Below, in pieces: positions 1,819-64,000 of a DNA stretch of 64,000 nucleotides. Both the position numbers and the translations under genes were made by a program. The notes under the pieces were generated by a model, which saw only the letters and a list, made by a program, of their open reading frames with translations, had not been told where the DNA came from and searched no databases. The stretch lies in assembly GCA_035402765.1 (NCBI GenBank), contig DAONDX010000004.1, forward strand, positions 43,317 to 107,316, written 5' to 3'. Position 1 is the first letter of the stretch. The number at the start of each line of letters is the position of its first letter. This stretch comes from Candidatus Omnitrophota bacterium. GTDB lineage: Bacteria; Omnitrophota; Gorgyraeia; Gygaellales; Profunditerraquicolaceae.

Positions 1819-2043
1819 ATGGATGCGAAAGTAGCAATGGATTTAGGTGTAGCGATTGCTTTAGGTGTAGCGGCTTTTGCTTCGGCAATTAGTTTAGGTA
1901 TCGCCGTAGCTGCAGCGATGGGAGCCATCGGCAGGCAGCCGGAAGCAGCAAATAAAATAATGACCAGTATGATTATTGGCTGCGCTTTTATTGAAGCGAT
2001 TACCATTTATGTGCTGGTATTTGCTTTTATGTACGCCAAGTAA
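1819..2043 (+). CDS. atpE: F0F1 ATP synthase subunit c
   Basis: 74 aa hairpin proteolipid (GAIGRQPEA... with the IEAITIYVLV ion-binding helix). RBS GAGGAGGAG upstream. Confidence 0.9.
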   Translation: MDAKVAMDLGVAIALGVAAFASAISLGIAVAAAMGAIGRQPEAANKIMTSMIIGCAFIEAITIYVLVFAFMYAK

Positions 2044-2060
2044 AATAGAGGGTTAAAACT

Positions 2061-2555
2061 GTGGAACTTCTCAAAATGCTCAGTGCCAGCGAAATTCTGG
2101 CGCAGATTTTAAGTTTTTTCCTGCTTTTGTTCCTGTTAAGGATATTTGCCTGGAAAAAAATTCTGGGTTTGCTGGATCAGCGTAAGGAAAAAATAAGCTC
2201 TCAACTTAGTGAAATAGAAAACACTAAGCTGGAGGTGGCTAAGCTTAAAGCTGATTATGAATCCAAAATTTCTAATATTGCCGCTTCGGCCCAGGAAAAA
2301 ATTAATGCCGCGGTCGAACAGGCCAAGATTGTAAGCATGCAAATGCGTAAAAAAGCGCACGAAGAAGCGCAGGACATTATTATCGATGCCCGGCAGCAGG
2401 TAAAATATGAAGTTACTAAAGTTCAGGAGCAGCTTAAGGAAAGAATCGTGGATATTGCTCTGGATGCTGCCCGCTCGGTGATCCAGGAGAAGCTTACTGA
2501 GGACGGGGATCGTAAGATAGTCGAAGATTTTATACGCGAGGTTGAAAAAGCTTAA
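2061..2555 (+). CDS. atpF: F0F1 ATP synthase subunit b
   Basis: N-terminal TM segment followed by a long charged coiled-coil. Position is between atpE and atpH. Confidence 0.8.
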   Translation: MELLKMLSASEILAQILSFFLLLFLLRIFAWKKILGLLDQRKEKISSQLSEIENTKLEVAKLKADYESKISNIAASAQEKINAAVEQAKIVSMQMRKKAHEEAQDIIIDARQQVKYEVTKVQEQLKERIVDIALDAARSVIQEKLTEDGDRKIVEDFIREVEKA

Positions 2556-3104
2556 ATGATCAAAGATAAAGCGGTAGTCAGCCGGTATGGGGAAGCTTTT
2601 ATCAGTTTTGCCCGGGCCGGCTGCGGTGAAAACAAGGCTTTGGAAGATCTGGTGGTGGCCAAAAACATTATCCGCGATAATCCGGGTTTTAAGGAATTGA
2701 TGGATAATCCGGAGATCTCTTATGCTGAAAAGTGCCTGATTGTTGATGAGGTGGTTAAAGACGGCGTTTCCGATGAGCTGCGCAATTTTTTAAAACTTCT
2801 GCTGGAAAAGAGACGTTTTAATATTTTGCTGGAAGTCGCGGAGTATTTGCGCGCCAAATACAGCCATCATGGTCAAATCGATGTTTTGCTTAAGACGGCT
2901 TTTCCATTAGATCTGGATGCGATTAAAAGAATAGAGGAAGCCTTAAAAAATAAATATAAGCAGAATTTAAGATTTTATATTGATTTAGACGGTAGTTTAT
3001 TGGGCGGGGTGCAGGTAATTATCGGCAACACGATCATCGATGGTTCAGTAAAAAAACGCCTGGAAGAATTAAGAGATAAGTTGATTACAGTAAAAATGGA
3101 TTAA
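2556..3104 (+). CDS. atpH: F0F1 ATP synthase subunit delta (OSCP)
   Basis: 182 aa. Position between atpF and atpA, with a delta/OSCP-like C-terminal region (...IIGNTIIDGSVKKRLEEL). Confidence 0.75.
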   Translation: MIKDKAVVSRYGEAFISFARAGCGENKALEDLVVAKNIIRDNPGFKELMDNPEISYAEKCLIVDEVVKDGVSDELRNFLKLLLEKRRFNILLEVAEYLRAKYSHHGQIDVLLKTAFPLDLDAIKRIEEALKNKYKQNLRFYIDLDGSLLGGVQVIIGNTIIDGSVKKRLEELRDKLITVKMD

Positions 3105-3121
3105 TTTAGGGAAGGAATAAA

Positions 3122-4645
3122 ATGGTTTTAAAACCGGAAGAAGTTACCGCGATAATTAAGAAGGAACTGGAGAAATATAAGTCCCGCCTGCGTACCGAAT
3201 CTATCGGTACCGTCATTCAGGTGGGAGATACCATTGCCCGGGTTTATGGATTAGATGATGTAATGATGGGTGAATTGGTGGAGTTTTCGGATAATATCAT
3301 GGGTATGGTTCTGAATTTAGAGGAGGATAGCGCCGGAGTAGTAATCTTTGGTACGGATAATCCGGATAAAACTATCCGGGAAGGGGATTTGGTTAAGCGT
3401 ACCGGTAAAATTGTACAAGTTCCCGTAGGCGAAGCTTTAGTGGGCAGGGTGGTTAATGGTTTGGGCCGGCCGATTGACGGTAAGGGAAAAGTTAACACGC
3501 AAAAAACCCGGCCGATAGAATCCGGCGCTCCGAATGTCGTAGAAAGGCAGCCGGTCAACCAGCCTTTGCATACTGGAATTAAAGCGATTGACGCGATGAC
3601 TCCCATTGGTCGCGGCCAGCGCGAATTGATTATCGGCGACCGTCAAACCGGAAAAACCGCTATTGCCATCGATACGATTATCAACCAAAAAGGAAAAGAC
3701 GTTTACTGTATTTATTGCGCGATCGGACAGAAATTATCCAGTGTGGTGGCAGTAAATGAAGTGCTTAAGAAGTACGGGGCGATGGAGTATACTACGATTG
3801 TTAGCGCCTCTAGCCGGGCTTCGGCCAGCCTCCAGTATCTTGCCCCATATGCCGCTACCGCAATGGCCGAAGAGTTTATGTATTCCGGTAAACACGTTTT
3901 AGTAATTTATGATGACCTGTCTAAACATGCCCAGGCCTACCGGCAGTTATCTTTACTGCTTAGACGCCCTCCGGGCAGGGAGGCTTATCCCGGTGATATT
4001 TTTTATTTGCATTCCAGGCTTTTGGAGCGTTCCGCGAAATTAAATGATGCTTTAGGGGCCGGTTCAATCACCGCTATCCCGATTGTTGAAACTCAAGCCG
4101 GAGATATCTCCAGTTATATTCCGACCAATGTTATTTCAATTACTGACGGCCAGATTTATTTGGAAAGCGACCTGTTTTACGCAGGGATCCGGCCGGCGGT
4201 AAATGTGGGATTATCGGTTTCCCGCGTGGGAGGTAAAGCTCAAAGCAAGGCTATGCGCCAGGTAGCTTCGAAATTAAGGTTGGATTTGGCGCAATACCGT
4301 GAACTAGTAACTTTCACTCAATTTGGTACGGATTTAGATAAAACTACGCGCGCTCAACTGACTCGCGGTGAAAGAATGATGGAAGTTTTAAAACAAACGC
4401 AGTATGAGCCGCTTTCGGCAGTCAAGCAGATCATTATTATTTACGCCGGTACCAACGGTTATCTGGATGATTTTCCGGTAGGCATGATTAAAAAATTTCA
4501 ACAGCATCTCTATGAATTTATCCAAAAGCAATACCCGGAGCTTGAGGTTGAAATAGAGTCAAAGGATAACCTGGACTCAAATTTAAAAAACAAATTGGAT
4601 ATCTTGATTGTGGATTTTAAGAAAGAATTCTTAAGCAACTCCTGA
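3122..4645 (+). CDS. atpA: F0F1 ATP synthase subunit alpha
   Basis: Walker A GDRQTGKT and alpha-subunit signature regions. 507 aa. Confidence 0.95.
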
Positions 4646-4650
4646 TTCTT

Positions 4651-6907
<2,257 letters not shown>

Positions 6908-7156
6908 ATGGCCAAGACTTTTAAAACCGGTATTTACTCAAGCGAAAAAACATTGTATGAGGGCGAAGTTATATCCCTGGTTGTGCCTTCGGTATTAGGT
7001 TCGATGGGTATTTTGGCAGATCATGCCCCTTTGGTGGCTAAACTGTCCGGCGGTAAAATTATTATCCGTACCGCGCAAGGCAATACCACAAGTATTGATT
7101 CATCGCCATCCGGTTTTCTGCAGGTTTTACAGAATCAGGTCATCTTGCTTTTGTAG
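6908..7156 (+). CDS. atpC: F0F1 ATP synthase subunit epsilon, short form (N-terminal beta-sandwich only)
   Basis: 82 aa aligning to the epsilon N-terminal domain (GSMGILADHAPLVAKL...GFLQV). The stop codon falls where the C-terminal two-helix domain would normally begin. Confidence 0.75.
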   Translation: MAKTFKTGIYSSEKTLYEGEVISLVVPSVLGSMGILADHAPLVAKLSGGKIIIRTAQGNTTSIDSSPSGFLQVLQNQVILLL

Positions 7157-7177
7157 AAATAACGCTTAAAAATATTC

Positions 7178-7205
7178 TTGACAAAACCATAGTTTTTGTT
7201 ATATT
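7178..7205 (+). promoter_or_regulatory. sigma70-like promoter upstream of rex (TTGACA-N16-TATATT)
   Basis: TTGACA at 7178-7183 and TATATT at 7200-7205, about 30 nt upstream of the rex start codon. Confidence 0.4.
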
Positions 7206-7234
7206 ACTCTTGTTATTGTGAAAATTGGAACAAT

Positions 7235-7861
7235 ATGATTACAAATAAGAACTGCATCATTCGGCTTTCCCGGTACAAAAACGCTCTTTATAGACTGCAA
7301 GCTTTAGGTTTTGTGAAAGTTTTCTCTGATAACCTAGCTGATTCTGTAGGCTGTACCGCTTCTCAGGTAAGAAAAGATTTCTCTATCTTTGGTATCTCCG
7401 GGAATAAAAAAGGGGGTTACCAGATTGATTCTTTATTAGAGAATCTCAATAGTATTTTGGGTAAAGACCAGCTGCATAAGGTTATTGTGGTAGGCGGCGG
7501 ACACCTTGGCAGCGCATTGATGCGTTACCGGGGGTTTGAAAAAGAAGGTATAAAAATCGTTGCCGGTTTTGATATTGATCCGTCAAAAATCAACCGCTCT
7601 AATCCTGTCCCGGTTTTACCGCTGGAGGAAGTCAAAGCTTTTATAAAAACTAATGGTATTCGCATCGCTATTTTAGCGGTTCCGGATATCACTGCTCAGC
7701 AGGCAGCGGATTTGATTTCTGCTGCGGGGATTAAAGGTATACTTAATTTTGCCCCCCTGCGGCTTAAGGCACCCGACGGAAGTATTATTAACAACGTAAA
7801 TTTAGAGATTGAGTTGGAAAATCTGATCTATTTTGTAAACGTAGCCGAAAAGACTAAATAA
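7235..7861 (+). CDS. rex: Redox-sensing transcriptional repressor Rex
   Basis: N-terminal winged helix (SRYKNALYRL...) and Rossmann GGGHLGSAL NADH-binding motif. Start moved to the internal ATG at 7235 (MITNKN...); the upstream part of the tool ORF is Cys/Tyr-rich and unlikely to be coding. Confidence 0.85.
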   Translation: MITNKNCIIRLSRYKNALYRLQALGFVKVFSDNLADSVGCTASQVRKDFSIFGISGNKKGGYQIDSLLENLNSILGKDQLHKVIVVGGGHLGSALMRYRGFEKEGIKIVAGFDIDPSKINRSNPVPVLPLEEVKAFIKTNGIRIAILAVPDITAQQAADLISAAGIKGILNFAPLRLKAPDGSIINNVNLEIELENLIYFVNVAEKTK

Positions 7862-7877
7862 AGCCAAGGAAAATAAG

Positions 7878-8366
7878 ATGATTGAAGAACAGAAGACGAT
7901 GCAGGAAGAAATTGCCAGTTTAGTAGAGAAATGGAAGGATAAAGAAGGTAATTTAATTATGATTCTGCACGAGCTGCAGAATTATTTCGGTTATGTCCCG
8001 CGTCCGGCTGCCCTGGAGCTTTCCCGGGTTTTGCATACGCCGCTGGCCAGGATCTATGAAGTAATTACTTTTTATAATTTTTTTAAACTGACTCCTCCCG
8101 GGAAACATACTATTTCATTATGTCTGGGAACTGCCTGCTATCTGAAAGGTTCAGCGATTCTCCTGAATGAGATTAAGGGGCTGTTAAATGTTGAAGAGGG
8201 CCAGACGACTAAAGACGGACTCTTTCAATTGGATGTGGTGCGTTGCTTAGGCTGTTGCGGCTTGGCTCCGGTGATCAAAATTGATGAAAAAGTCTATGGT
8301 AAAGTGCAGAAGAGCCAGGTAATGGGCATTCTTTCAGAATACAGCGAAAATAATCAAGAGGTATAA
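7878..8366 (+). CDS. hndA: NADH-dependent [FeFe]-hydrogenase subunit, NuoE-like 2Fe-2S thioredoxin-fold protein (HndA/HydC type)
   Basis: Cys motifs CLGTACYLKG...VVRCLGCCGLAPV typical of the NuoE/24-kDa family. Confidence 0.85.
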   Translation: MIEEQKTMQEEIASLVEKWKDKEGNLIMILHELQNYFGYVPRPAALELSRVLHTPLARIYEVITFYNFFKLTPPGKHTISLCLGTACYLKGSAILLNEIKGLLNVEEGQTTKDGLFQLDVVRCLGCCGLAPVIKIDEKVYGKVQKSQVMGILSEYSENNQEV

Positions 8367-35388: not shown

Positions 35389-35446
35389 GCCCGCCATTGG
35401 ATCGTTGGCGGATTTCGCTAGAGGTAAAGAATGAAAACCTAGATTT

Positions 35447-35519
35447 GGGCCTCTAGCTCATCCGGTAGAGCACCACACTTTTAATGTGGTTGTGCCGCGT
35501 TCGAGTCGCGGGAGGCTCA
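35447..35519 (+). tRNA. tRNA-Lys (anticodon TTT)
   Basis: Manual cloverleaf fold: acceptor GGGCCTC/GAGGCTC, D-arm GCTC-ATCCGGTA-GAGC, anticodon arm CCACA-CTTTTAA-TGTGG, T-arm CCGCG-TTCGAGT-CGCGG, discriminator A. CCA is not encoded. Confidence 0.85.
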
Positions 35520-35614
35520 AATAAATTTCATAGTCAGGTAACGCGGCCGCCGCGTTCTCCCGTTAGCATAAAATAGAGGCGGGATTCCGCCCTAAGGTTT
35601 ATTGAGAGGGCGGA

Positions 35615-35631
35615 GAGTCGCGGGAGGCTCA
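35615..35631 (+). repeat. 17-nt direct repeat of the tRNA-Lys 3' end (gagtcgcgggaggctca); the original is at 35503-35519
   Basis: Exact 17-mer duplicated 96 nt downstream of the tRNA end. The intervening segment contains a perfect palindrome aacgcgg-ccg-ccgcgtt and a ggcgg/ccgcc hairpin. Confidence 0.7.
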
Positions 35632-35749
35632 TAAAATTTTTGCGTAAGCAAAAATTACTCCGAGCGATACCAAAAATGTGTTTATTTCACTGCAACATTT
35701 AGGTGTAAGCGAGGAGCAAAGTTTATTTGTTGGTGGAGAGGAAATATCC

Positions 35750-35831
35750 GGGCGGATGGCGAAATTGGCAGACGCGATAGCCTTAGGAGCTATTGGGGTA
35801 ACCCTTGGAGGTTCAAATCCTCTTCCGCCCA
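35750..35831 (+). tRNA. tRNA-Leu (anticodon TAG)
   Basis: Acceptor GGGCGGA/TCCGCCC, Leu-type D-arm GCG-AAATTGGCAGA-CGC, anticodon arm ATAGC-CTTAGGA-GCTAT, long variable arm TGGGGTAACCCTT, T-arm GGAGG-TTCAAAT-CCTCT. 82 nt. Confidence 0.8.
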
Positions 35832-36125
35832 TAAAAATTTTACTACGTAAAATTTTTACACCGGACGTTTCAAATAAATTTATTAAACCGTTTGATATAG
35901 GCTTAGTCCGGTGGGCAAGTAAGCTAAGTAATTGATAAGCACTAGCGAACAACGTGGCACCGGCGTCTTAGATTATTAAAAGCTAAGGAAAGGGTAACAG
36001 GGCGCCGCAGGCGACCGCCATAGGGGAAACCTTAGGTTGGAGTGAGCGTTGTAATTAAATAAATTTACTGCGAGCGACGCAGTACCCCGCGTCTAGTGGA
36101 ATTGCGCGGGTACGCAATACGTATT

Positions 36126-36202
<77 letters not shown>

Positions 36203-53173: not shown

Positions 53174-53980
53174 ATGATGGCCCAGATAATTGTTTTTCTT
53201 TTTGGTTCGATCGTCGGAAGTTTTTTAAACGTCTGTATTCATCGCATGCCTAAAGGCGAATCTATAGTTTGGCCGCGTTCACATTGTCCGAAATGCCAGA
53301 AGAGAATACCGGGTTATGACAATATTCCTTTTATAAGTTTTATTTTACTTGGCGGGCGCTGCCGCTTTTGCCGGGAAAAAATCTCTTTGCGTTATCCCCT
53401 GGTAGAATTATTGACCGCTATTCTAACCGTAGTGTTTTTTAACCGTTTTGGTTTAAGCTACGAATTCTTTTTATATCTGGTTATGTTATGGGCTTTAATT
53501 ATCGCTACTTTTGTCGATATCGCGCATCGGATCATTCCGGATGAGGTATCCGTTGGCGGGATGATTATCGGCTTGATTATGGTTTCGATAACCGGTTTTA
53601 GTTTTAATCCTCTAAAATTCAGCTTGGTTCCGATGGGCAAGTCCGCATTAGGCGCCATCGCCGGAGGAGGGATCATCTATTTGACCGGAGTGATCTTCGA
53701 CCTGGTATATTTTAAATTACTTAAAAAACCTGCGATTAACGGAGAGACCGAATCGATGGGCGGAGGAGATGTAAAGCTTTTAGCCATGATCGGTGCGTTT
53801 ATGGGCTGGCAGATGGCGGTTTTAACTTTTTTTCTGGCACCGTTTTTAGGTATTGTGATCGGTATTGTAAATTTAATGACCAAGAAGGACCATACGATAC
53901 CTTACGGCCCGTTTCTTTCGATCGCCTCCCTGGTTGCTTTATTCTGGGGAAATAAAATAATCTCTTTGCTCCTTCCTTAA
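53174..53980 (+). CDS. pilD: Prepilin leader peptidase/N-methyltransferase (A24 family)
   Basis: N-terminal tetracysteine CPKC...CRFC, multiple TM helices, conserved Asp-containing regions (DIAHRIIPDE; GGGDVKLLAMIG). 268 aa. Confidence 0.8.
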   Translation: MMAQIIVFLFGSIVGSFLNVCIHRMPKGESIVWPRSHCPKCQKRIPGYDNIPFISFILLGGRCRFCREKISLRYPLVELLTAILTVVFFNRFGLSYEFFLYLVMLWALIIATFVDIAHRIIPDEVSVGGMIIGLIMVSITGFSFNPLKFSLVPMGKSALGAIAGGGIIYLTGVIFDLVYFKLLKKPAINGETESMGGGDVKLLAMIGAFMGWQMAVLTFFLAPFLGIVIGIVNLMTKKDHTIPYGPFLSIASLVALFWGNKIISLLLP

Positions 53981-59080: not shown

Positions 59081-62000
59081 ATGAAAAAACCCAAGAGTTT
59101 AAAAGTTATCGCTATTATTCTGTGCGGTTTGCTTATTTTTCAGCAGACGGGCTTTGCCCAGGTGGCCTCTGTTGAATTAAATATTGCCGGCCACATTGCG
59201 TCTTTCCACAATACTTTCTTCCCGGAAAAATTCCGGCCGCTGCATTTAAGAAGCATATCTTATGATGAATTGAATAATGATTTTAAGCTGCTTTTGGATA
59301 AAGGCGATGAACAGAAGCTGAAAAATCAAGATATTGAATTAACCGCCAAAGATTTGCTTAATTACTTTTTTGTGGGCATTGCTTTACCCAATGATGCCTT
59401 TTGGGTAAACCTGCGCCCGGATTCTCCCAATGATATTATTGATCCGTTCCTGGCGCAGACCGAAGTGGGCAAGATTTTCCTGGAAGCAGACCTGCAGTTA
59501 AAAAAAGACGCGGCTAATGCCACTAATCCTCAAACTATTGAAGGCAAGGAGTACTGGGATAAGCTTTATCGAAAAGCCGCGGAGATTTATGGAACACAGG
59601 AAGTAACGATCCCGACTCTTACCCGTCCCTGGATTGTCCCGGATGAGGTGATCATCCGCGAATCAACGGATTCAGCTTATGTTTATAAAGCTACGCTTAA
59701 GGTCATGTTGGAGCAGGATTACTTAAAAGGCAATGCTGCTTATTCCTTTAAAGACGAGAGAGAAAAACAACTCAATGAATATTCTACTCAACTTATCAAA
59801 GAAGATATTGTTCCTAAACTTACTAAAGAAATTAACACTGCTAAGCGCTATGCTCCCTTAAGGCAGGTTTATTATTCGCTTATCCTGGCCCAGTGGTTTA
59901 AAGCTAGAAATCAAAATAAAAATAACCAGTATGCCGAGCGCATTGATAGAAAAGACCTGGCTAATCTGCAAGCCCGGGTTCCTTATTCCGTAAGTACTTA
60001 TTTTAATGCTTACCAAGAGAATTTTGCTAAAGGGGAATATAATATTAAAGCGCCTGTTTCTACTCCTTACGGCCAGGTGATCAGGAGTTATTTTTCAGGA
60101 GGAATTTCCGTTACCGCTTTGGTTGCTCCTGCTTTAGGAGAGCTACCTTCGGGTGCGGTTACTGTGCTGCCGGATACAAATGCTTATTTACCGAAAGGTA
60201 CGGATCTCCCTGCGCTAGCTTCAGCTAATGGAGAAGTAAGTCTTGCTGGTCCTTCCGCAGGGCAGGTTTTAGCTTCGCCGGAGGAAACCCTGGATGAGGA
60301 GTATGCCCGGTTAAATAATGAGTTATGGAGTTTGGATCCTCAAAAAGACGCCGCCAAGTTAGGGCCGATCAAAAAGCGGATGCGCGAGATCGATAATAAA
60401 TTAAGGCCGGTTGATCTGGGCGGTTCTTCAGCAGGAGAATCGGGCTCCGGCCAAGGCAATGGGCCAGGCGGGATGGAAAAACCAGAGGATGCGGCAGCGT
60501 ATGCCAGCCTTCCTTCACTGGATGAGCTGCCTTCGGAAGCTCAGCAAAATGTTAAGAATTCCATAGAGGGGTTAGAGAAAGATATTGAGAGGCTGGAAAA
60601 TGCGGTAAGAGAATTTGAATCAGCAAGTTCTAAACAGATGGTAATGGAGGATGGTTCACGCCGGAATGTCCCGGAGACATTAATGGCGAGATTGAGGTTT
60701 AATTTTCCGGGTTTGGTTAATGCTCAGACCGAAAGCAGCATCCCGTCTATTACCGGTGGAAGAAGCATTAATATGGCAGAATATTTGGTTACCCGGGAGT
60801 TAATTGCTGTCGCTGAAAGACTGAATAAAATGATGCCGGATTGGCTGGCGCGTATTAAAAACAAAAATACAGCTATGGGAGAGTGGTTATCTTGGATACA
60901 GATGGGTGCTGTTGAACAGCAAATGTCCATTATACCGTTTCAGTCTCTTATCGCAACCAGGCTGCGAGATCAGGAAAGTATTGAGAATATTGATCAGGCT
61001 TTTGGGAAAGGCCGGGATTTATTAATTCATTCGGCATCTCCGGAGGTGATCTCTAAAATTCTGGAGAGGAATGTTTTAGCCTCTCGGCTTCAGCAACGGA
61101 AGCGTTTTGGTGAAGATGTCCAGTCTACAGTTTTGCTTTCCAACCGGGCAATGCCTAAAGGGGCGGAAGAAGAATTAAACCAGATTGTTTTTGGATACAA
61201 CCAGTGGTTCACCGGCTACGGAGCTTTTGCGATTATTCTCCCTGCCCGGCCGGTGTTGGCTAATAATCAATTCTCGGAATGGGATGGTATTCATGTGTTT
61301 GATTTAAATAATCAGGGGTTTGCACAGGATCTCTTTGCGGTTCCTTTTGTGTTAGTAGCGGCTCCGGAGGGGGAAAGCGAAGTAAGGGGTATGCTTCAAA
61401 AATATGCTGAAAGGTTACTTGCGGATAATCCCGATCTCGATATTTCTTCCTGGGTGGAAAACCATATTAAGGTGTTGTCGGTAGATAGCTTAAAACCTAC
61501 AGTGAATTCTTCAGGCGTAAATATCAGGAGCTTGTCTGATCAGGAGCAAAATGAAATATGGTCCATGATGCAACGGCAATCTAACGCCAACACCCTGGTT
61601 CCTCAAGCCGGTCATTTTTTACCAACCGGTAAACGGGAGAGAATGTTTAAAAATGTAGAGCAGGAGCAATATATCTACCATATCAATGCTCAACAGATTT
61701 TGCCCAGTCCAGGTTTGGATAAAAGAGTGCCTAGTCCAGCCAGCCTAAATGTAGCCGAGGGGGTTGAAAGACGAGAAGATGCGGCCAGGCGAAACGCGAT
61801 CGACAGAATTAAAACTAGAATAGAAGATTATCAGGCATTTGAGCAGTTGATAGGCGGGATTATAAATAAGCTTGAAGCCGGCCAACCTCTCTTAGCTGAA
61901 GATATTTCTGTTTTAAATGAGTTTAAGGACCGGATTATTCTTAAAAATTCCCTGGTGGCTTTGTACCTTAAGACGCATCCGGGAGATGTTATCGTGGTCA

Positions 62001-64000
62001 GCAATCAACCGGCAATAAAATTTCTCAATACGATGATCGGCGAACCGGCAACGAATAGGCTTATTGAATTAAGGCAAAAGACAGCCACCCGGCTTTTGAT
62101 AGAATCCGGGCTGGTTAGATCTGAAGACAAAAGCACTTTGTCGCTTTTATTTAAACAGGATAAATTTGTGATTGAAGCGGAGGTGGTAAGCCAGTTGGGG
62201 AGTGTTGAGATATCCAAAAAACTAAATTGGGTCGCCCAGAGATTATCCGCGGAGTTAACCGAATTTTTGCACCGGGAGTATAAGGATAATGCGGCGATCC
62301 AGGATTTTGTTTTTGTGTCTCAGTTCGGAGCAAGTTTACCGGTAAAAGACCAGACTGACGATGCGTATATCTTAGCGGATATCCAGGCGCTACAGGCGGC
62401 TAAAATGGCCAGGCGTCTCGGACAGTCGGAGCGCATCTTTAATTACCAGGAGCTTGATAGTTTATTGCTTCAGGCGGCGGAATTGAGACAGGCATTAGGG
62501 CTGGGCCGGGAAGAAATGGCTTCGGAAGATGAAATGAGAACAGTCAGGGGAAAAACAGTCGAAAGCCTGGAATTGGAAGTAAAAAATGGGGCAGCCGGGG
62601 CGCAAAGGCAGCTACAGCTTAAAAAATATTTAGAAATTCTGGACTTGTTTGACTACCAGAAGTCCTGGCGGCCTAGTCCGGCAGAACGGACAGAACAGGC
62701 CGGTGCTATTTTTTCAGTTTTAGGCCGGTTAGACAGGATCATCCAAAATCGAGATTCTCCTGAGGCTGCCGTGGCTTCTTTACGAAAGGCTTTGTCGGTA
62801 ATTAAAACTAATCCTAAGAATTCTAAGATTGTCTCCGGTGAGGCTTTTCTAGCTAATGCCGCGAAATTACTTGAGGAAGAAGATGTCGTATTGATCGCTA
62901 TGGATGTAGTCGGATTTTGGTCTGATATGCAGAAGCATTTTTCCGCGGCGCACCAGGAGAGTATGAAGATCCCGGTATACCGGGCAGAAGATGGACTGCG
63001 GATGTCAATTTTGATTTTAATTGCGGATGATTTGGTAAAAAGAAAAATGTCAGAGAGGCTTAACGCTTTGATCAAAATAATCGGAGAGGATATTCCCGTT
63101 CTTAATGCTGATGGCACCGATCTTATGCTGATTAATCAGGAGGGGGGAGACGAAATAGTTTTTGCTGTCCGCAAACACGATTGGAATGCTTTAGCCACTA
63201 AGCTCTCCAATCAAAATTTGGGGGTCAGGATCATTGCTAATAGCATCTCTTCAGTCGGTAAGCGACCGGGGCAATCAGATCAAACTCTCTTAGGAAGAGC
63301 TTACACAAATGTTGCCCACGATGTTTTTGGAGAAGCTTATGTTACTACCCAGGAATCGGATAAGAAAGCTAAAGATCTTGAAAAGTTAGGGGTGTATTCG
63401 GCGGTAATTTCTCTGGAGGCCAATGACCGGGGTGCGTCAGAATGGTTTGTTTATTATAAGGGCAAGCGGGCCGCGTATGATGAATTTTTAGAAAAACAAA
63501 TAGCAGAAATGAAGGCATTGGGCACAGATTCTAAATCACCTTCTGCTGACGAATCAGGAGTAACCGGCAGTCCTTCTCAGCCGTATACTAATGCCGTGGC
63601 AAGGGATGTTGTAAGACCGTTATTATCAAAAGGAGAAGAAGAAGGGCAGCTGAGAATATTAGATGTGGGCTCTGGATCGGGGATTACCTCCGTGGCAGCT
63701 GCCCTGTTTGGCGGAGAGGATGTAAAGGTAACCGGTTTAGAACCGGATAAAAATAATGTAGATTTAAGTAATCGGGTAAAGCAATACGCCGGTAATTTAG
63801 ACAGAGAGGGCCTCTTCGATCGATCGGGAGATGTGGAGACGTATGTAGAAGAACTGGAAAGCAGCGGAGAAGTTTCCGAGCCGGTCGATAACGTCGAATT
63901 CCGGGTAGGCAGCGCTACCTTGATACCCTACGCTGACAATTCTTTTAACCGGATAATATATTTTGATGTTAATTCATTTATTTTAAAAGCAAATGACAGG
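59081..64000 (+). CDS. Giant secreted multidomain protein, 5'-complete and 3'-truncated by the window end (at least 1,640 aa). N-terminal signal peptide, class III nucleotidyl-cyclase-homology-like domain, class I SAM-methyltransferase motif.
   Basis: I translated frame 2 by hand from the ATG at 59081 and saw no stop codon through 64000 (4,920 nt). The six-frame track lists no complete + ORF here, only short - strand ORFs, which is consistent with a single unterminated ORF. An in-frame TAG at 59069-59071 precedes the ATG. N-terminus MKKPKSLKVIAIILCGLLIFQQTGFAQVAS has a Sec signal with an AxA site. Cyclase-like motifs at about 62.9-63.3 kb: VLIAMDVVGFWS, ILILIADD, GGDEIVFAV, GVRIIANSISSVGKRPG...GRAYTNVAHD. 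MTase motif I LRILDVGSGSG at about 63.66 kb. Confidence 0.7.
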   Translation, partial: MKKPKSLKVIAIILCGLLIFQQTGFAQVASVELNIAGHIASFHNTFFPEKFRPLHLRSISYDELNNDFKLLLDKGDEQKLKNQDIELTAKDLLNYFFVGIALPNDAFWVNLRPDSPNDIIDPFLAQTEVGKIFLEADLQLKKDAANATNPQTIEGKEYWDKLYRKAAEIYGTQEVTIPTLTRPWIVPDEVIIRESTDSAYVYKATLKVMLEQDYLKGNAAYSFKDEREKQLNEYSTQLIKEDIVPKLTKEINTAKRYAPLRQVYYSLILAQWFKARNQNKNNQYAERIDRKDLANLQARVPYSVSTYFNAYQENFAKGEYNIKAPVSTPYGQVIRSYFSGGISVTALVAPALGELPSGAVTVLPDTNAYLPKGTDLPALASANGEVSLAGPSAGQVLASPEETLDEEYARLNNELWSLDPQKDAAKLGPIKKRMREIDNKLRPVDLGGSSAGESGSGQGNGPGGMEKPEDAAAYASLPSLDELPSEAQQNVKNSIEGLEKDIERLENAVREFESASSKQMVMEDGSRRNVPETLMARLRFNFPGLVNAQTESSIPSITGGRSINMAEYLVTRELIAVAERLNKMMPDWLARIKNKNTAMGEWLSWIQMGAVEQQMSIIPFQSLIATRLRDQESIENIDQAFGKGRDLLIHSASPEVISKILERNVLASRLQQRKRFGEDVQSTVLLSNRAMPKGAEEELNQIVFGYNQWFTGYGAFAIILPARPVLANNQFSEWDGIHVFDLNNQGFAQDLFAVPFVLVAAPEGESEVRGMLQKYAERLLADNPDLDISSWVENHIKVLSVDSLKPTVNSSGVNIRSLSDQEQNEIWSMMQRQSNANTLVPQAGHFLPTGKRERMFKNVEQEQYIYHINAQQILPSPGLDKRVPSPASLNVAEGVERREDAARRNAIDRIKTRIEDYQAFEQLIGGIINKLEAGQPLLAEDISVLNEFKDRIILKNSLVALYLKTHPGDVIVVSNQPAIKFLNTMIGEPATNRLIELRQKTATRLLIESGLVRSEDKSTLSLLFKQDKFVIEAEVVSQLGSVEISKKLNWVAQRLSAELTEFLHREYKDNAAIQDFVFVSQFGASLPVKDQTDDAYILADIQALQAAKMARRLGQSERIFNYQELDSLLLQAAELRQALGLGREEMASEDEMRTVRGKTVESLELEVKNGAAGAQRQLQLKKYLEILDLFDYQKSWRPSPAERTEQAGAIFSVLGRLDRIIQNRDSPEAAVASLRKALSVIKTNPKNSKIVSGEAFLANAAKLLEEEDVVLIAMDVVGFWSDMQKHFSAAHQESMKIPVYRAEDGLRMSILILIADDLVKRKMSERLNALIKIIGEDIPVLNADGTDLMLINQEGGDEIVFAVRKHDWNALATKLSNQNLGVRIIANSISSVGKRPGQSDQTLLGRAYTNVAHDVFGEAYVTTQESDKKAKDLEKLGVYSAVISLEANDRGASEWFVYYKGKRAAYDEFLEKQIAEMKALGTDSKSPSADESGVTGSPSQPYTNAVARDVVRPLLSKGEEEGQLRILDVGSGSGITSVAAALFGGEDVKVTGLEPDKNNVDLSNRVKQYAGNLDREGLFDRSGDVETYVEELESSGEVSEPVDNVEFRVGSATLIPYADNSFNRIIYFDVNSFILKANDR

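Follow-up and report, generated by a model that had tools for sequence, protein, structure and literature searches.

Conserved termini around an interchangeable centre in a large family of long Omnitrophota proteins

We analysed a 64,000-nucleotide stretch of DNA from a Candidatus Omnitrophota bacterium (assembly GCA_035402765.1, contig DAONDX010000004.1, positions 43,317 to 107,316; hereafter, the window) and, within it, the open reading frame (ORF) that begins with an ATG at position 59081 of the + strand and runs off the end of the window. The ORF is a member of a very large, unannotated and undescribed family of Omnitrophota proteins, which is built as a constant chassis, consisting of a signal peptide, an N-terminal module of ~320 amino acids (aa) and a C-terminal module of ~120 aa (N-module and C-module, respectively), around an interchangeable centre. 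The centre of this copy consists of an orphan region of ~450 aa, a block of ~585 aa that ends in a divergent GGDEF-type domain, and a class I S-adenosylmethionine (SAM)-dependent methyltransferase. The reading that we consider the likeliest, although we hold it only tentatively and infer both location and role, is that of an exported chassis that would carry a swappable enzymatic payload. The features of the ORF within the window are as follows.

59081..59158, + strand: predicted Sec-type signal peptide, aa 1-26, from reading of the sequence, with predicted cleavage between A and Q of G-F-A-Q
59159..60115, + strand: N-module, aa 27-345, with the invariant motifs FWVNLRPD, IPTLTRPWIVP, YKATLKVxLE, LRQVYYS..WFK and RSYxSGG
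60116..60517, + strand: A/P/S/G-rich low-complexity linker, aa 346-479, from reading of the sequence; a variable linker occupies this position in all paralogues
60518..61765, + strand: orphan region, aa 480-895, a coiled-coil-like stretch and then ~350 aa without detectable relative
61766..62782, + strand: N-half of the shared block, aa 896-1234, a helical stalk and an alpha/beta unit, with the motif IKFLN
62783..63520, + strand: divergent GGDEF-type palm domain, aa 1235-1480, with D1275 at 62903-62905 and GGDE (aa 1355-1358) at 63143-63154
63644..64000, + strand: class I SAM-dependent methyltransferase, aa 1522-~1670, Methyltransf_11, cut by the window end at aa 1640

Translation of the window yields 1,640 codons without a stop from 59081 to base 64000, in agreement with a first-pass annotation that had been made from the sequence alone. 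Of the 1,640 residues, 1,638 are identical in P0001, a protein of 1,862 aa that is encoded on a 68,220-bp Joint Genome Institute (JGI) contig; the two differences are A1479V and T1482A. Given that this near-identical full-length sequence exists, we consider the gene to be real and ~1,862 aa long, such that ~222 codons are predicted to lie past the window end; the giant gene that the first-pass annotation had envisaged is not borne out. That the long frame is an artefact of a chimeric assembly or belongs to a pseudogene appears extremely improbable. The lack of relatives of aa 400-895 among the compared sequences is what could be expected of an inserted foreign segment, but the frame is uninterrupted, the composition is uniform across the ORF region (GC content of 0.41-0.46, with a steady skew), P0001 is an independent sequence, and the syntenic orthologues keep the same ends. 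Such orthologues are found in at least 6 other metagenome-assembled genomes (MAGs), which likewise speaks against an artefact.

A search for homologues recovered >1,000 proteins that cover 21-25% of the query at 55-80% identity, nearly all of them labelled as Omnitrophota, the phylum of which the first-pass annotation had been reminded. The conserved pieces were mapped in the best 119 of these >1,000 matches: the N-terminal piece (aa 1-~355) is common to all 119, at 55-80% identity, and the C-terminal piece (aa 1742-1860) is common to ~100. A profile of the N-module was searched against 1.84 billion cluster representatives, of which 7,700 matched (6,384 at E <= 1e-30), almost all from Omnitrophota; P0001 scores 632 bits against this profile. 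Throughout the 7,700 representatives, the N-module is present in one copy, always at the extreme N-terminus (residues 1-350). The proteins that carry it are roughly 900 to at least 7,391 aa long (7,391 aa being the longest among the best 150 matches), and entries shorter than ~900 aa are probably fragments. In species-representative genomes, we identified 419 N-module loci, nearly all in Omnitrophota MAGs and in several copies per genome; the few loci with other taxon labels are probably binning or labelling artefacts. Two family members (L058 and L066) lie on a single contig of 17,240 bp (SCRK01000074.1), and at least 5 (L058, L066, L067, L074 and L079) are found in the MAG FW104_bin.10, which indicates local as well as dispersed paralogy. 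No paralogue of the ORF was found elsewhere in the 64-kb window.

The C-module (~120 aa) begins with GGIDFRxLP and forms the extreme C-terminus of P0001 (aa 1742-1860), where it is 50-78% identical to most homologues. As judged from P0001, which is 99.9% identical, the C-module of the window gene would lie just past the window end. Its sequence pattern looks helical and appears unlike a beta-sandwich, a beta-barrel or a transmembrane (TM) anchor. No relative of either module was found among Pfam models or PDB sequences, and no NCBIfam model matched the N-module in a search with the window fragment, which stops before the C-module.

The centres of the paralogues are highly diverse. The domains that Pfam recognises there include GGDEF, methyltransferases, GNAT, PGK, GAPDH with PGK, PGM with PGK, NAD-glutamate dehydrogenase, PEP-utilising domains, UbiB kinases with M48 peptidases, radical SAM with B12-binding domains, NUDIX, HD, HATPase, metallophosphatase with FHA, DnaJ, TPR and HEAT. 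Examples are P0093 (GAPDH and PGK), P0095 (PGM and PGK), P0108 and P0120 (PGK), P0072 and P0113 (NAD-glutamate dehydrogenase), and P0019 (radical SAM and B12-binding); some such paralogues of 1.2-1.9 thousand aa are labelled plainly as ‘phosphoglycerate kinase’ by NCBI. The gene of P0120 is not part of a gap-pgk-tpi operon.

Exchange of the centre is also evident at a single chromosomal position. Seven loci share the synteny upstream of the window ORF (PP-loop ATPase, RmuC and YfiH), and the six complete members found there range in length from 1,170 to at least 2,367 aa and differ in their centres, some carrying the GGDEF-like block and one a GGDEF domain recognisable by Pfam. Comparison of the N-modules shows that the eight nearest to that of the query (72-78%) all carry other centres, and that the proteins sharing its block rank 9th to 106th of 107 by N-module similarity. 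Thus, the centre has been exchanged, or the ends have been homogenised, independently of the cargo. The similarities of the N-module and of the C-module are correlated across paralogues (Spearman 0.57). At one syntenic locus (L002), that of the closest Omnitrophota relative (N-module 82% identical), the family gene is split into two ORFs, 1860-4397 (845 aa) and 4418-7924 (1,168 aa), the second of which ends in the C-module; the split may be due to a frameshift, a sequencing error or pseudogenisation.

The N-terminus of the window protein consists of MKKPKSLK, VIAIILCGLLIF and QQTGFA, with Q following the predicted cleavage site, that is, an n-region with 4 Lys, an h-region of 12 residues, and small residues at -3 and -1. 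The Sec signal peptide with a 12-residue core that the first-pass annotation had proposed fits these n/h/c features, which are kept among 35 diverse paralogues, with Q22, G24, A26 and Q27 (near-)invariant. The signal peptide is the sole hydrophobic segment of the protein (Kyte-Doolittle (KD) hydropathy of 1.84), and because the small-x-small site is conserved and no other hydrophobic segment is present, export of the whole chain is predicted. A lipoprotein reading of the conserved Cys in the h-region was rejected (Leu or Phe occupies position -1, and some paralogues lack the Cys), as was a prepilin-type (class III) signal at G-F (the hydrophobic stretch precedes G-F, and there is no Glu at +5). 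The low-complexity linker that follows the N-module includes the previously noted Gly/Ser tract GGSSAGESGSGQGNGPGG (aa 447-464, nucleotides 60419-60472). The linkers of the family are rich in S, P and G, a composition typical of extracytoplasmic multidomain proteins.

Further signals are found inside other members of the family. In 205 proteins, we identified 19 strict internal twin-arginine motifs, compared to a rough chance expectation of 2-3, and ~10 of these follow directly after the N-module and linker. These segments, which resemble signals of the twin-arginine translocation (Tat) pathway and are absent from the window ORF, consist of (S/T)RRxF(L/I)K, an Ala/Gly-rich h-region and an AxA-like end; they are located at aa 410 of P0040, 440 of P0050, 445 of P0086, 394 of P0109, 387 of P0136, 409 of P0137, 413 of P0141, 388 of P0149, 690 of P0166, 1905 of P0134 and 2999 of P0172, among others. 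A different motif, (A/G/S/T)-S-S-P-(V/I), is ~40-fold enriched in 120 family proteins (63 observed vs. 1.5 expected) and likewise absent from the window ORF. It sits at domain junctions, e.g., in P0012, P0017, P0021, P0022, P0025 and P0037, sometimes with a signal-peptide-like segment within the ~10 residues that follow (e.g., ASSPVAIASFKKMNLIVATALSLLVSTGFDINAQ in P0021), and may mark where the protein is processed or glycosylated, or where recombination has joined two parts.

The orphan region begins with the coiled-coil-like stretch that the first-pass annotation had noticed after the linker, which we place at aa ~485-516 (60533-60628); its sole support is a weak match to the Pfam model ABC_tran_CTD (E = 0.03). 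Apart from this match, aa 480-895 have no relative in Pfam, NCBIfam, PDB, PADLOC or PHROG, and BLAST comparison with 204 family proteins and 80 loci detected no relative of aa 400-895.

The block that follows is shared by 12 family proteins at 37-54% identity and is modelled by AlphaFold2 (AF2) with a pLDDT (predicted local distance difference test) of ~90. In its N-half, the order of elements in the alpha/beta unit, beta-alpha-alpha-beta-beta-alpha-beta-alpha-beta, suggests that the unit may be a degenerate second palm domain; a search for an internal duplication (tandem palm) in the block gave an hhalign probability of 0.3% and no repeat. The C-terminal half, aa 1235-1480, has in the model the beta-alpha-alpha-beta-beta-alpha-beta palm fold of cyclases and conforms to the predicted fold of GGDEF domains, which also gave the highest structural comparison scores (13.0-13.9), followed by class III adenylyl, guanylyl and uridylyl cyclases (~12.5), GTP cyclohydrolase III (12.1), mCpol (11.2), the Y-family polymerases Rev1 (11.0-11.4) and Dbh (10.9), and Cas10 (10.7). 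Two elements are invariant in the alignment of the clade: D1275, at the end of beta1, and Q-x-G-G-D-E with I, L or V as the next residue (aa 1353-1359), which in the block model is placed between two predicted strands of the hairpin, 456-459 and 463-469. We therefore describe this putative cyclase as a divergent palm domain of GGDEF type in which the putative metal-binding and catalytic positions (the beta1 Asp and the GGDE hairpin) are conserved. At the level of sequence profiles, the GGDEF hidden Markov model (HMM; PF00990) matched neither the window protein, nor P0001, nor the 12 clade members at any threshold applied; alignment of the clade to the family's own Pfam-positive GGDEF domains gave an hhalign probability of 0.2%; and the clade profile found no cyclase among PDB sequences.

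The first-pass annotation had assigned this region to the cyclase homology domain (CHD) of class III cyclases. The strings on which it relied were all found where it had placed them (VLIAMDVVGFWS at aa 1270-1281, ILILIADD at 1310-1317, GVRIIANS at 1381-1388 and GRAYTNVAHD at 1405-1414), and part of the assignment stands, namely a cyclase-type palm fold and the first metal-binding Asp within VLIAMDVVGFWS, which corresponds to the invariant D1275 on beta1; the equivalence of GVRIIANS to beta4 is plausible. The CHD class itself does not hold, in view of the higher scores of GGDEF domains and of the invariant GGDE hairpin. ILILIADD, taken to contain the second metal-binding Asp, falls within a long helix predicted at 407-442 of the block model rather than in the beta2-beta3 hairpin, so that this assignment is wrong, and GRAYTNVAHD, taken to be the N-x-x-x-R/H element, is deleted in 3 of the 12 homologues and is therefore not a conserved catalytic element. 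The Pfam model Guanylate_cyc (PF00211), the comparison proposed for checking the CHD assignment, gave no match at E <= 1 for the window protein and P0001, nor at E <= 10 for the 12 clade members.

The class I SAM-dependent methyltransferase is the only domain of the window protein that Pfam recognises above cut-off. Methyltransf_11 (PF08241) scores a marginal 21.4 bits on the window fragment and 35.1 bits on P0001, compared to a cut-off of 21.2, which bears out the earlier identification, and P0001 is also matched by PF13649 (34.2 bits, cut-off 27) and PF13847 (32.9 bits, cut-off 27). The SAM-binding motif I (GxGxG), ILDVGSGSG, is contained in LRILDVGSGSG at aa 1524-1534. The nearest solved relatives are YcgJ and LahSB, i.e., generic small-molecule or peptide methyltransferases. 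An origin from a defence system or a phage was considered and rejected, the only matches being generic methyltransferase matches to PADLOC mad2 and a PHROG.

Under the reading that we tentatively favour, the signal peptide would route the chain through Sec and be cut after G-F-A, the N- and C-modules would perform a job that every paralogue shares, be it export, anchoring at the envelope, assembly there or delivery beyond it, and the centre would be the payload. GTP and SAM are absent from the diderm periplasm, so that the payload would be active only where these cofactors exist, most plausibly inside a cell that serves these bacteria, putatively epibionts or predators, as host or prey. This agrees with the lifestyle that has been proposed for the phylum (PMC10066038) and with how the giant Archaeovorins have been interpreted (10.1101/2023.11.21.568195). 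The more specific proposal that the two modules are an unrecognised trafficking or assembly chassis exporting ordinarily cytoplasmic enzymes (cyclases, methyltransferases, acetyltransferases and even PGK, GAPDH and GDH), either to be injected into host or prey or to be docked head-to-tail into non-covalent giants, seems unlikely; if true, it would mean a new system for the secretion of effectors or for assembly at the surface, based on a new protein fold. Several observations weigh against export of an enzymatic payload. Almost every payload domain in the family is of a cytoplasmic type and depends on GTP, SAM, ATP, NAD, acetyl-CoA or Fe-S clusters, and export of a radical SAM enzyme or PGK through Sec is difficult to explain, so that action in the cytoplasm is favoured. 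A Tat signal has to be read from the cytoplasm, such that the Tat-like segments right after the N-module would place this module in the cytoplasm at least transiently, which is hard to reconcile with its export by its own Sec-type signal. Moreover, no secretion or partner gene recurs beside family members in the 80 loci; conservation alone suggests a chassis role for the N- and C-modules, which match no known fold or function; the export of the protein is inferred from sequence alone; and, in the putative cyclase, Phe is replaced by Ile and the Arg two residues ahead of GG by Gln, the RxxD I-site is missing, and similarity to the GGDEF HMM is not found.

The main alternative is a cytoplasmic, membrane-tethered signalling or metabolic scaffold, a possibility to which we assign a smaller but still substantial weight. 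In that case, the N-terminal helix would be an uncleaved anchor or no targeting signal at all, the entire chain with its N-module would remain on the cytoplasmic face, the GGDEF-type domain would convert GTP of the cell itself into a cyclic (di)nucleotide, the methyltransferase would likewise use SAM of the cell, and the modules would localise or oligomerise the many paralogues at a single site. The overwhelmingly cytoplasmic-type, cofactor-dependent payloads, including radical SAM and glycolytic enzymes, fit this arrangement, as do the housekeeping neighbours without a secretion partner and the ~10 paralogues whose Tat-like signals require the region right after the N-module to face the cytoplasm; a published analysis also reads the methyltransferase, HATPase and GNAT content of such proteins as compatible with a cytoplasmic face (10.64898/2026.06.07.730766). 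Conversely, the Lys-rich n-region and 12-residue h-region predict an N-in/C-out orientation with the bulk exported (positive-inside rule), a hydrophobic stretch of 12 residues is too short to form a stable TM helix, G(-3) and A(-1), which are invariant, resemble a signal peptidase I site, and there is no second hydrophobic segment to return the chain. Less likely than either of the preceding proposals is a self-assembling envelope or coat component, in which N- and C-modules would dock head-to-tail between paralogues, linking many proteins of 1-7 thousand aa into a non-covalent analogue of the single-chain giant Archaeovorins, with a mixture of enzymes displayed at the surface. The conservation of both ends around a variable centre, the correlated similarity of the two modules, the presence of several paralogues per genome and a domain repertoire matching that of the giant Archaeovorins speak for it, but the correlation may merely reflect shared descent, and the cofactor problem of extracellular enzymes persists. 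Very improbable is the reading of the first-pass annotation, that is, a unique giant exported protein that combines a catalytically degenerate CHD cyclase and a methyltransferase in an undescribed architecture. The methyltransferase and the signal peptide speak for it; the failed CHD motif assignments, the lack of a Guanylate_cyc HMM match, the better scores of GGDEF domains with their invariant GGDE hairpin, the length of 1,862 aa and a family of thousands speak against it, and the methyltransferase and GGDEF content of Omnitrophota long proteins has already been published.

With respect to genomic context, family members are embedded among housekeeping genes, at several positions of the chromosome that are conserved. 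When 1,624 ORFs from the 80 loci were clustered, only housekeeping neighbours and no recurring dedicated partner gene emerged, and a small gene that recurs or varies downstream was not found at these loci. In the annotated 9.4 kb upstream of the window ORF (49.7-59 kb), the genes are likewise housekeeping genes, except for one prepilin (type IV leader) peptidase gene (53174-53980), 5 kb upstream of the ORF, which is in conserved synteny at no fewer than 2 orthologous loci (L003 and L014); no other pilus or secretion genes, and no cluster of type II secretion system (T2SS), type IV pilus (T4P) or PilZ genes of the kind that accompanies Archaeovorin genes, were seen in these 9.4 kb. Across the window (1-64000), the + strand encodes all ORFs of at least 400 aa, and each of the 32 two-kb bins has a positive GC skew (0.06-0.25), as would suit a long segment of the leading strand with genes in one orientation. 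The interval 35446-36202 contains three tRNA genes (Lys-TTT, Leu-TAG and Gly-GCC).

Omnitrophota are widespread, uncultivated, ultra-small bacteria that are thought to live on or prey upon other cells, and their long mosaic proteins, almost wholly unannotated, are the main genomic clue to this lifestyle. The family described here is a tractable subset: thousands of proteins of 1-7 thousand aa with two strongly conserved ends, one of which has no detectable fold relative. Establishing the role of the two modules (export signal, anchor or docking) would give a cellular address to thousands of proteins and would directly test whether cytoplasm-type enzymes leave the cell. Two domain families, the N-module and the C-module, are open to curation, and the GGDEF-type clade of the shared block is divergent and invisible to current HMMs. 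Taken alone, the single gene is a moderate finding, one more member with a cyclase-plus-methyltransferase payload.

Comparison of the putative cyclase domain with canonical GGDEF cyclases (PF00990; PleD 1w25, DgcZ 3tvk and WspR 3i5c) shows a shared Asp at the end of beta1, GGDE in the beta2-beta3 hairpin, a helix after beta4 (K-x-K..G in the query) that resembles AD-x-ALY-x-AK-x-GRN, and a long helical stalk before the domain, as in many diguanylate cyclases. The query differs in the fifth signature residue (I/L/V instead of F), in the Gln that replaces Arg, in the missing RxxD inhibitory site and HMM similarity, and in its long alpha2, its variable insert between beta4 and alpha4, and its upstream signal peptide. 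With the class III cyclases (CHD, PF00211), the domain shares the first metal-binding Asp on beta1; the HMM, however, does not match, the second acidic residue lies in the GGDE hairpin instead of K-x-IGD-x-Y, and the equivalent of N-x-x-x-R is not conserved.

At the level of the whole protein, polymorphic toxin/effector systems, which have a variable C-terminal toxin domain and a cognate immunity gene (Zhang et al. 2012, PMC3482391), resemble the family in a conserved N-terminal module presumed to serve trafficking, in recombining enzymatic modules, in several paralogues per genome and in variation between orthologous loci. However, polymorphic toxins vary at the C-terminus, whereas in the query the variable part is central and the C-module after it is conserved; the 80 loci of the family show no recurring immunity gene next to the family member; the payloads include metabolic enzymes of housekeeping type rather than nucleases, deaminases or pore-formers; and the N-module matches no known trafficking domain. 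Cargo proteins with the C-terminal domain (CTD) of the type IX secretion system (T9SS), autotransporters and LPXTG proteins likewise begin with a Sec signal, continue with a passenger that varies and share a conserved module at the C-terminus, which we take as an analogy: the C-module matches none of them (Pfam, PDB sequence), and the query has a second large conserved module at its N-terminus.

The closest described proteins are the Archaeovorin-type giants and long mosaics (West-Roberts et al. 2023, 10.1101/2023.11.21.568195; 10.64898/2026.06.07.730766), which come from the same phylum, have an N-terminal signal peptide, and are mosaics of normally cytoplasmic domains (methyltransferase, GGDEF, GNAT, NUDIX, HATPase, radical SAM, PPDK_N, HEAT/TPR) joined by unannotated sequence, with a proposed role in interaction with host or prey. 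Both studies describe Omnitrophota long proteins with a signal peptide and with methyltransferase, GGDEF, GNAT and similar domains. Most of the published long proteins with this repertoire bear a signal peptide or TM segments, and dependence on a host or predation has been proposed as their lifestyle (10.1101/2023.11.21.568195; 10.64898/2026.06.07.730766; PMC10066038). The architecture that the first-pass annotation had called undescribed thus has published counterparts, and its termini are common to thousands of proteins. The query differs from the Archaeovorins in length (1.9 vs. 10-147 thousand aa), in having no internal TM helices, where the Archaeovorins have many, and in its membership of a subfamily whose hallmark is a conserved module at either end, modules that we did not find described in the Omnitrophota long-protein literature searched (the original V. 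archaeovorus paper was outside this search). The gene is, accordingly, a member of a large undescribed variant within the long mosaic proteins of Omnitrophota.

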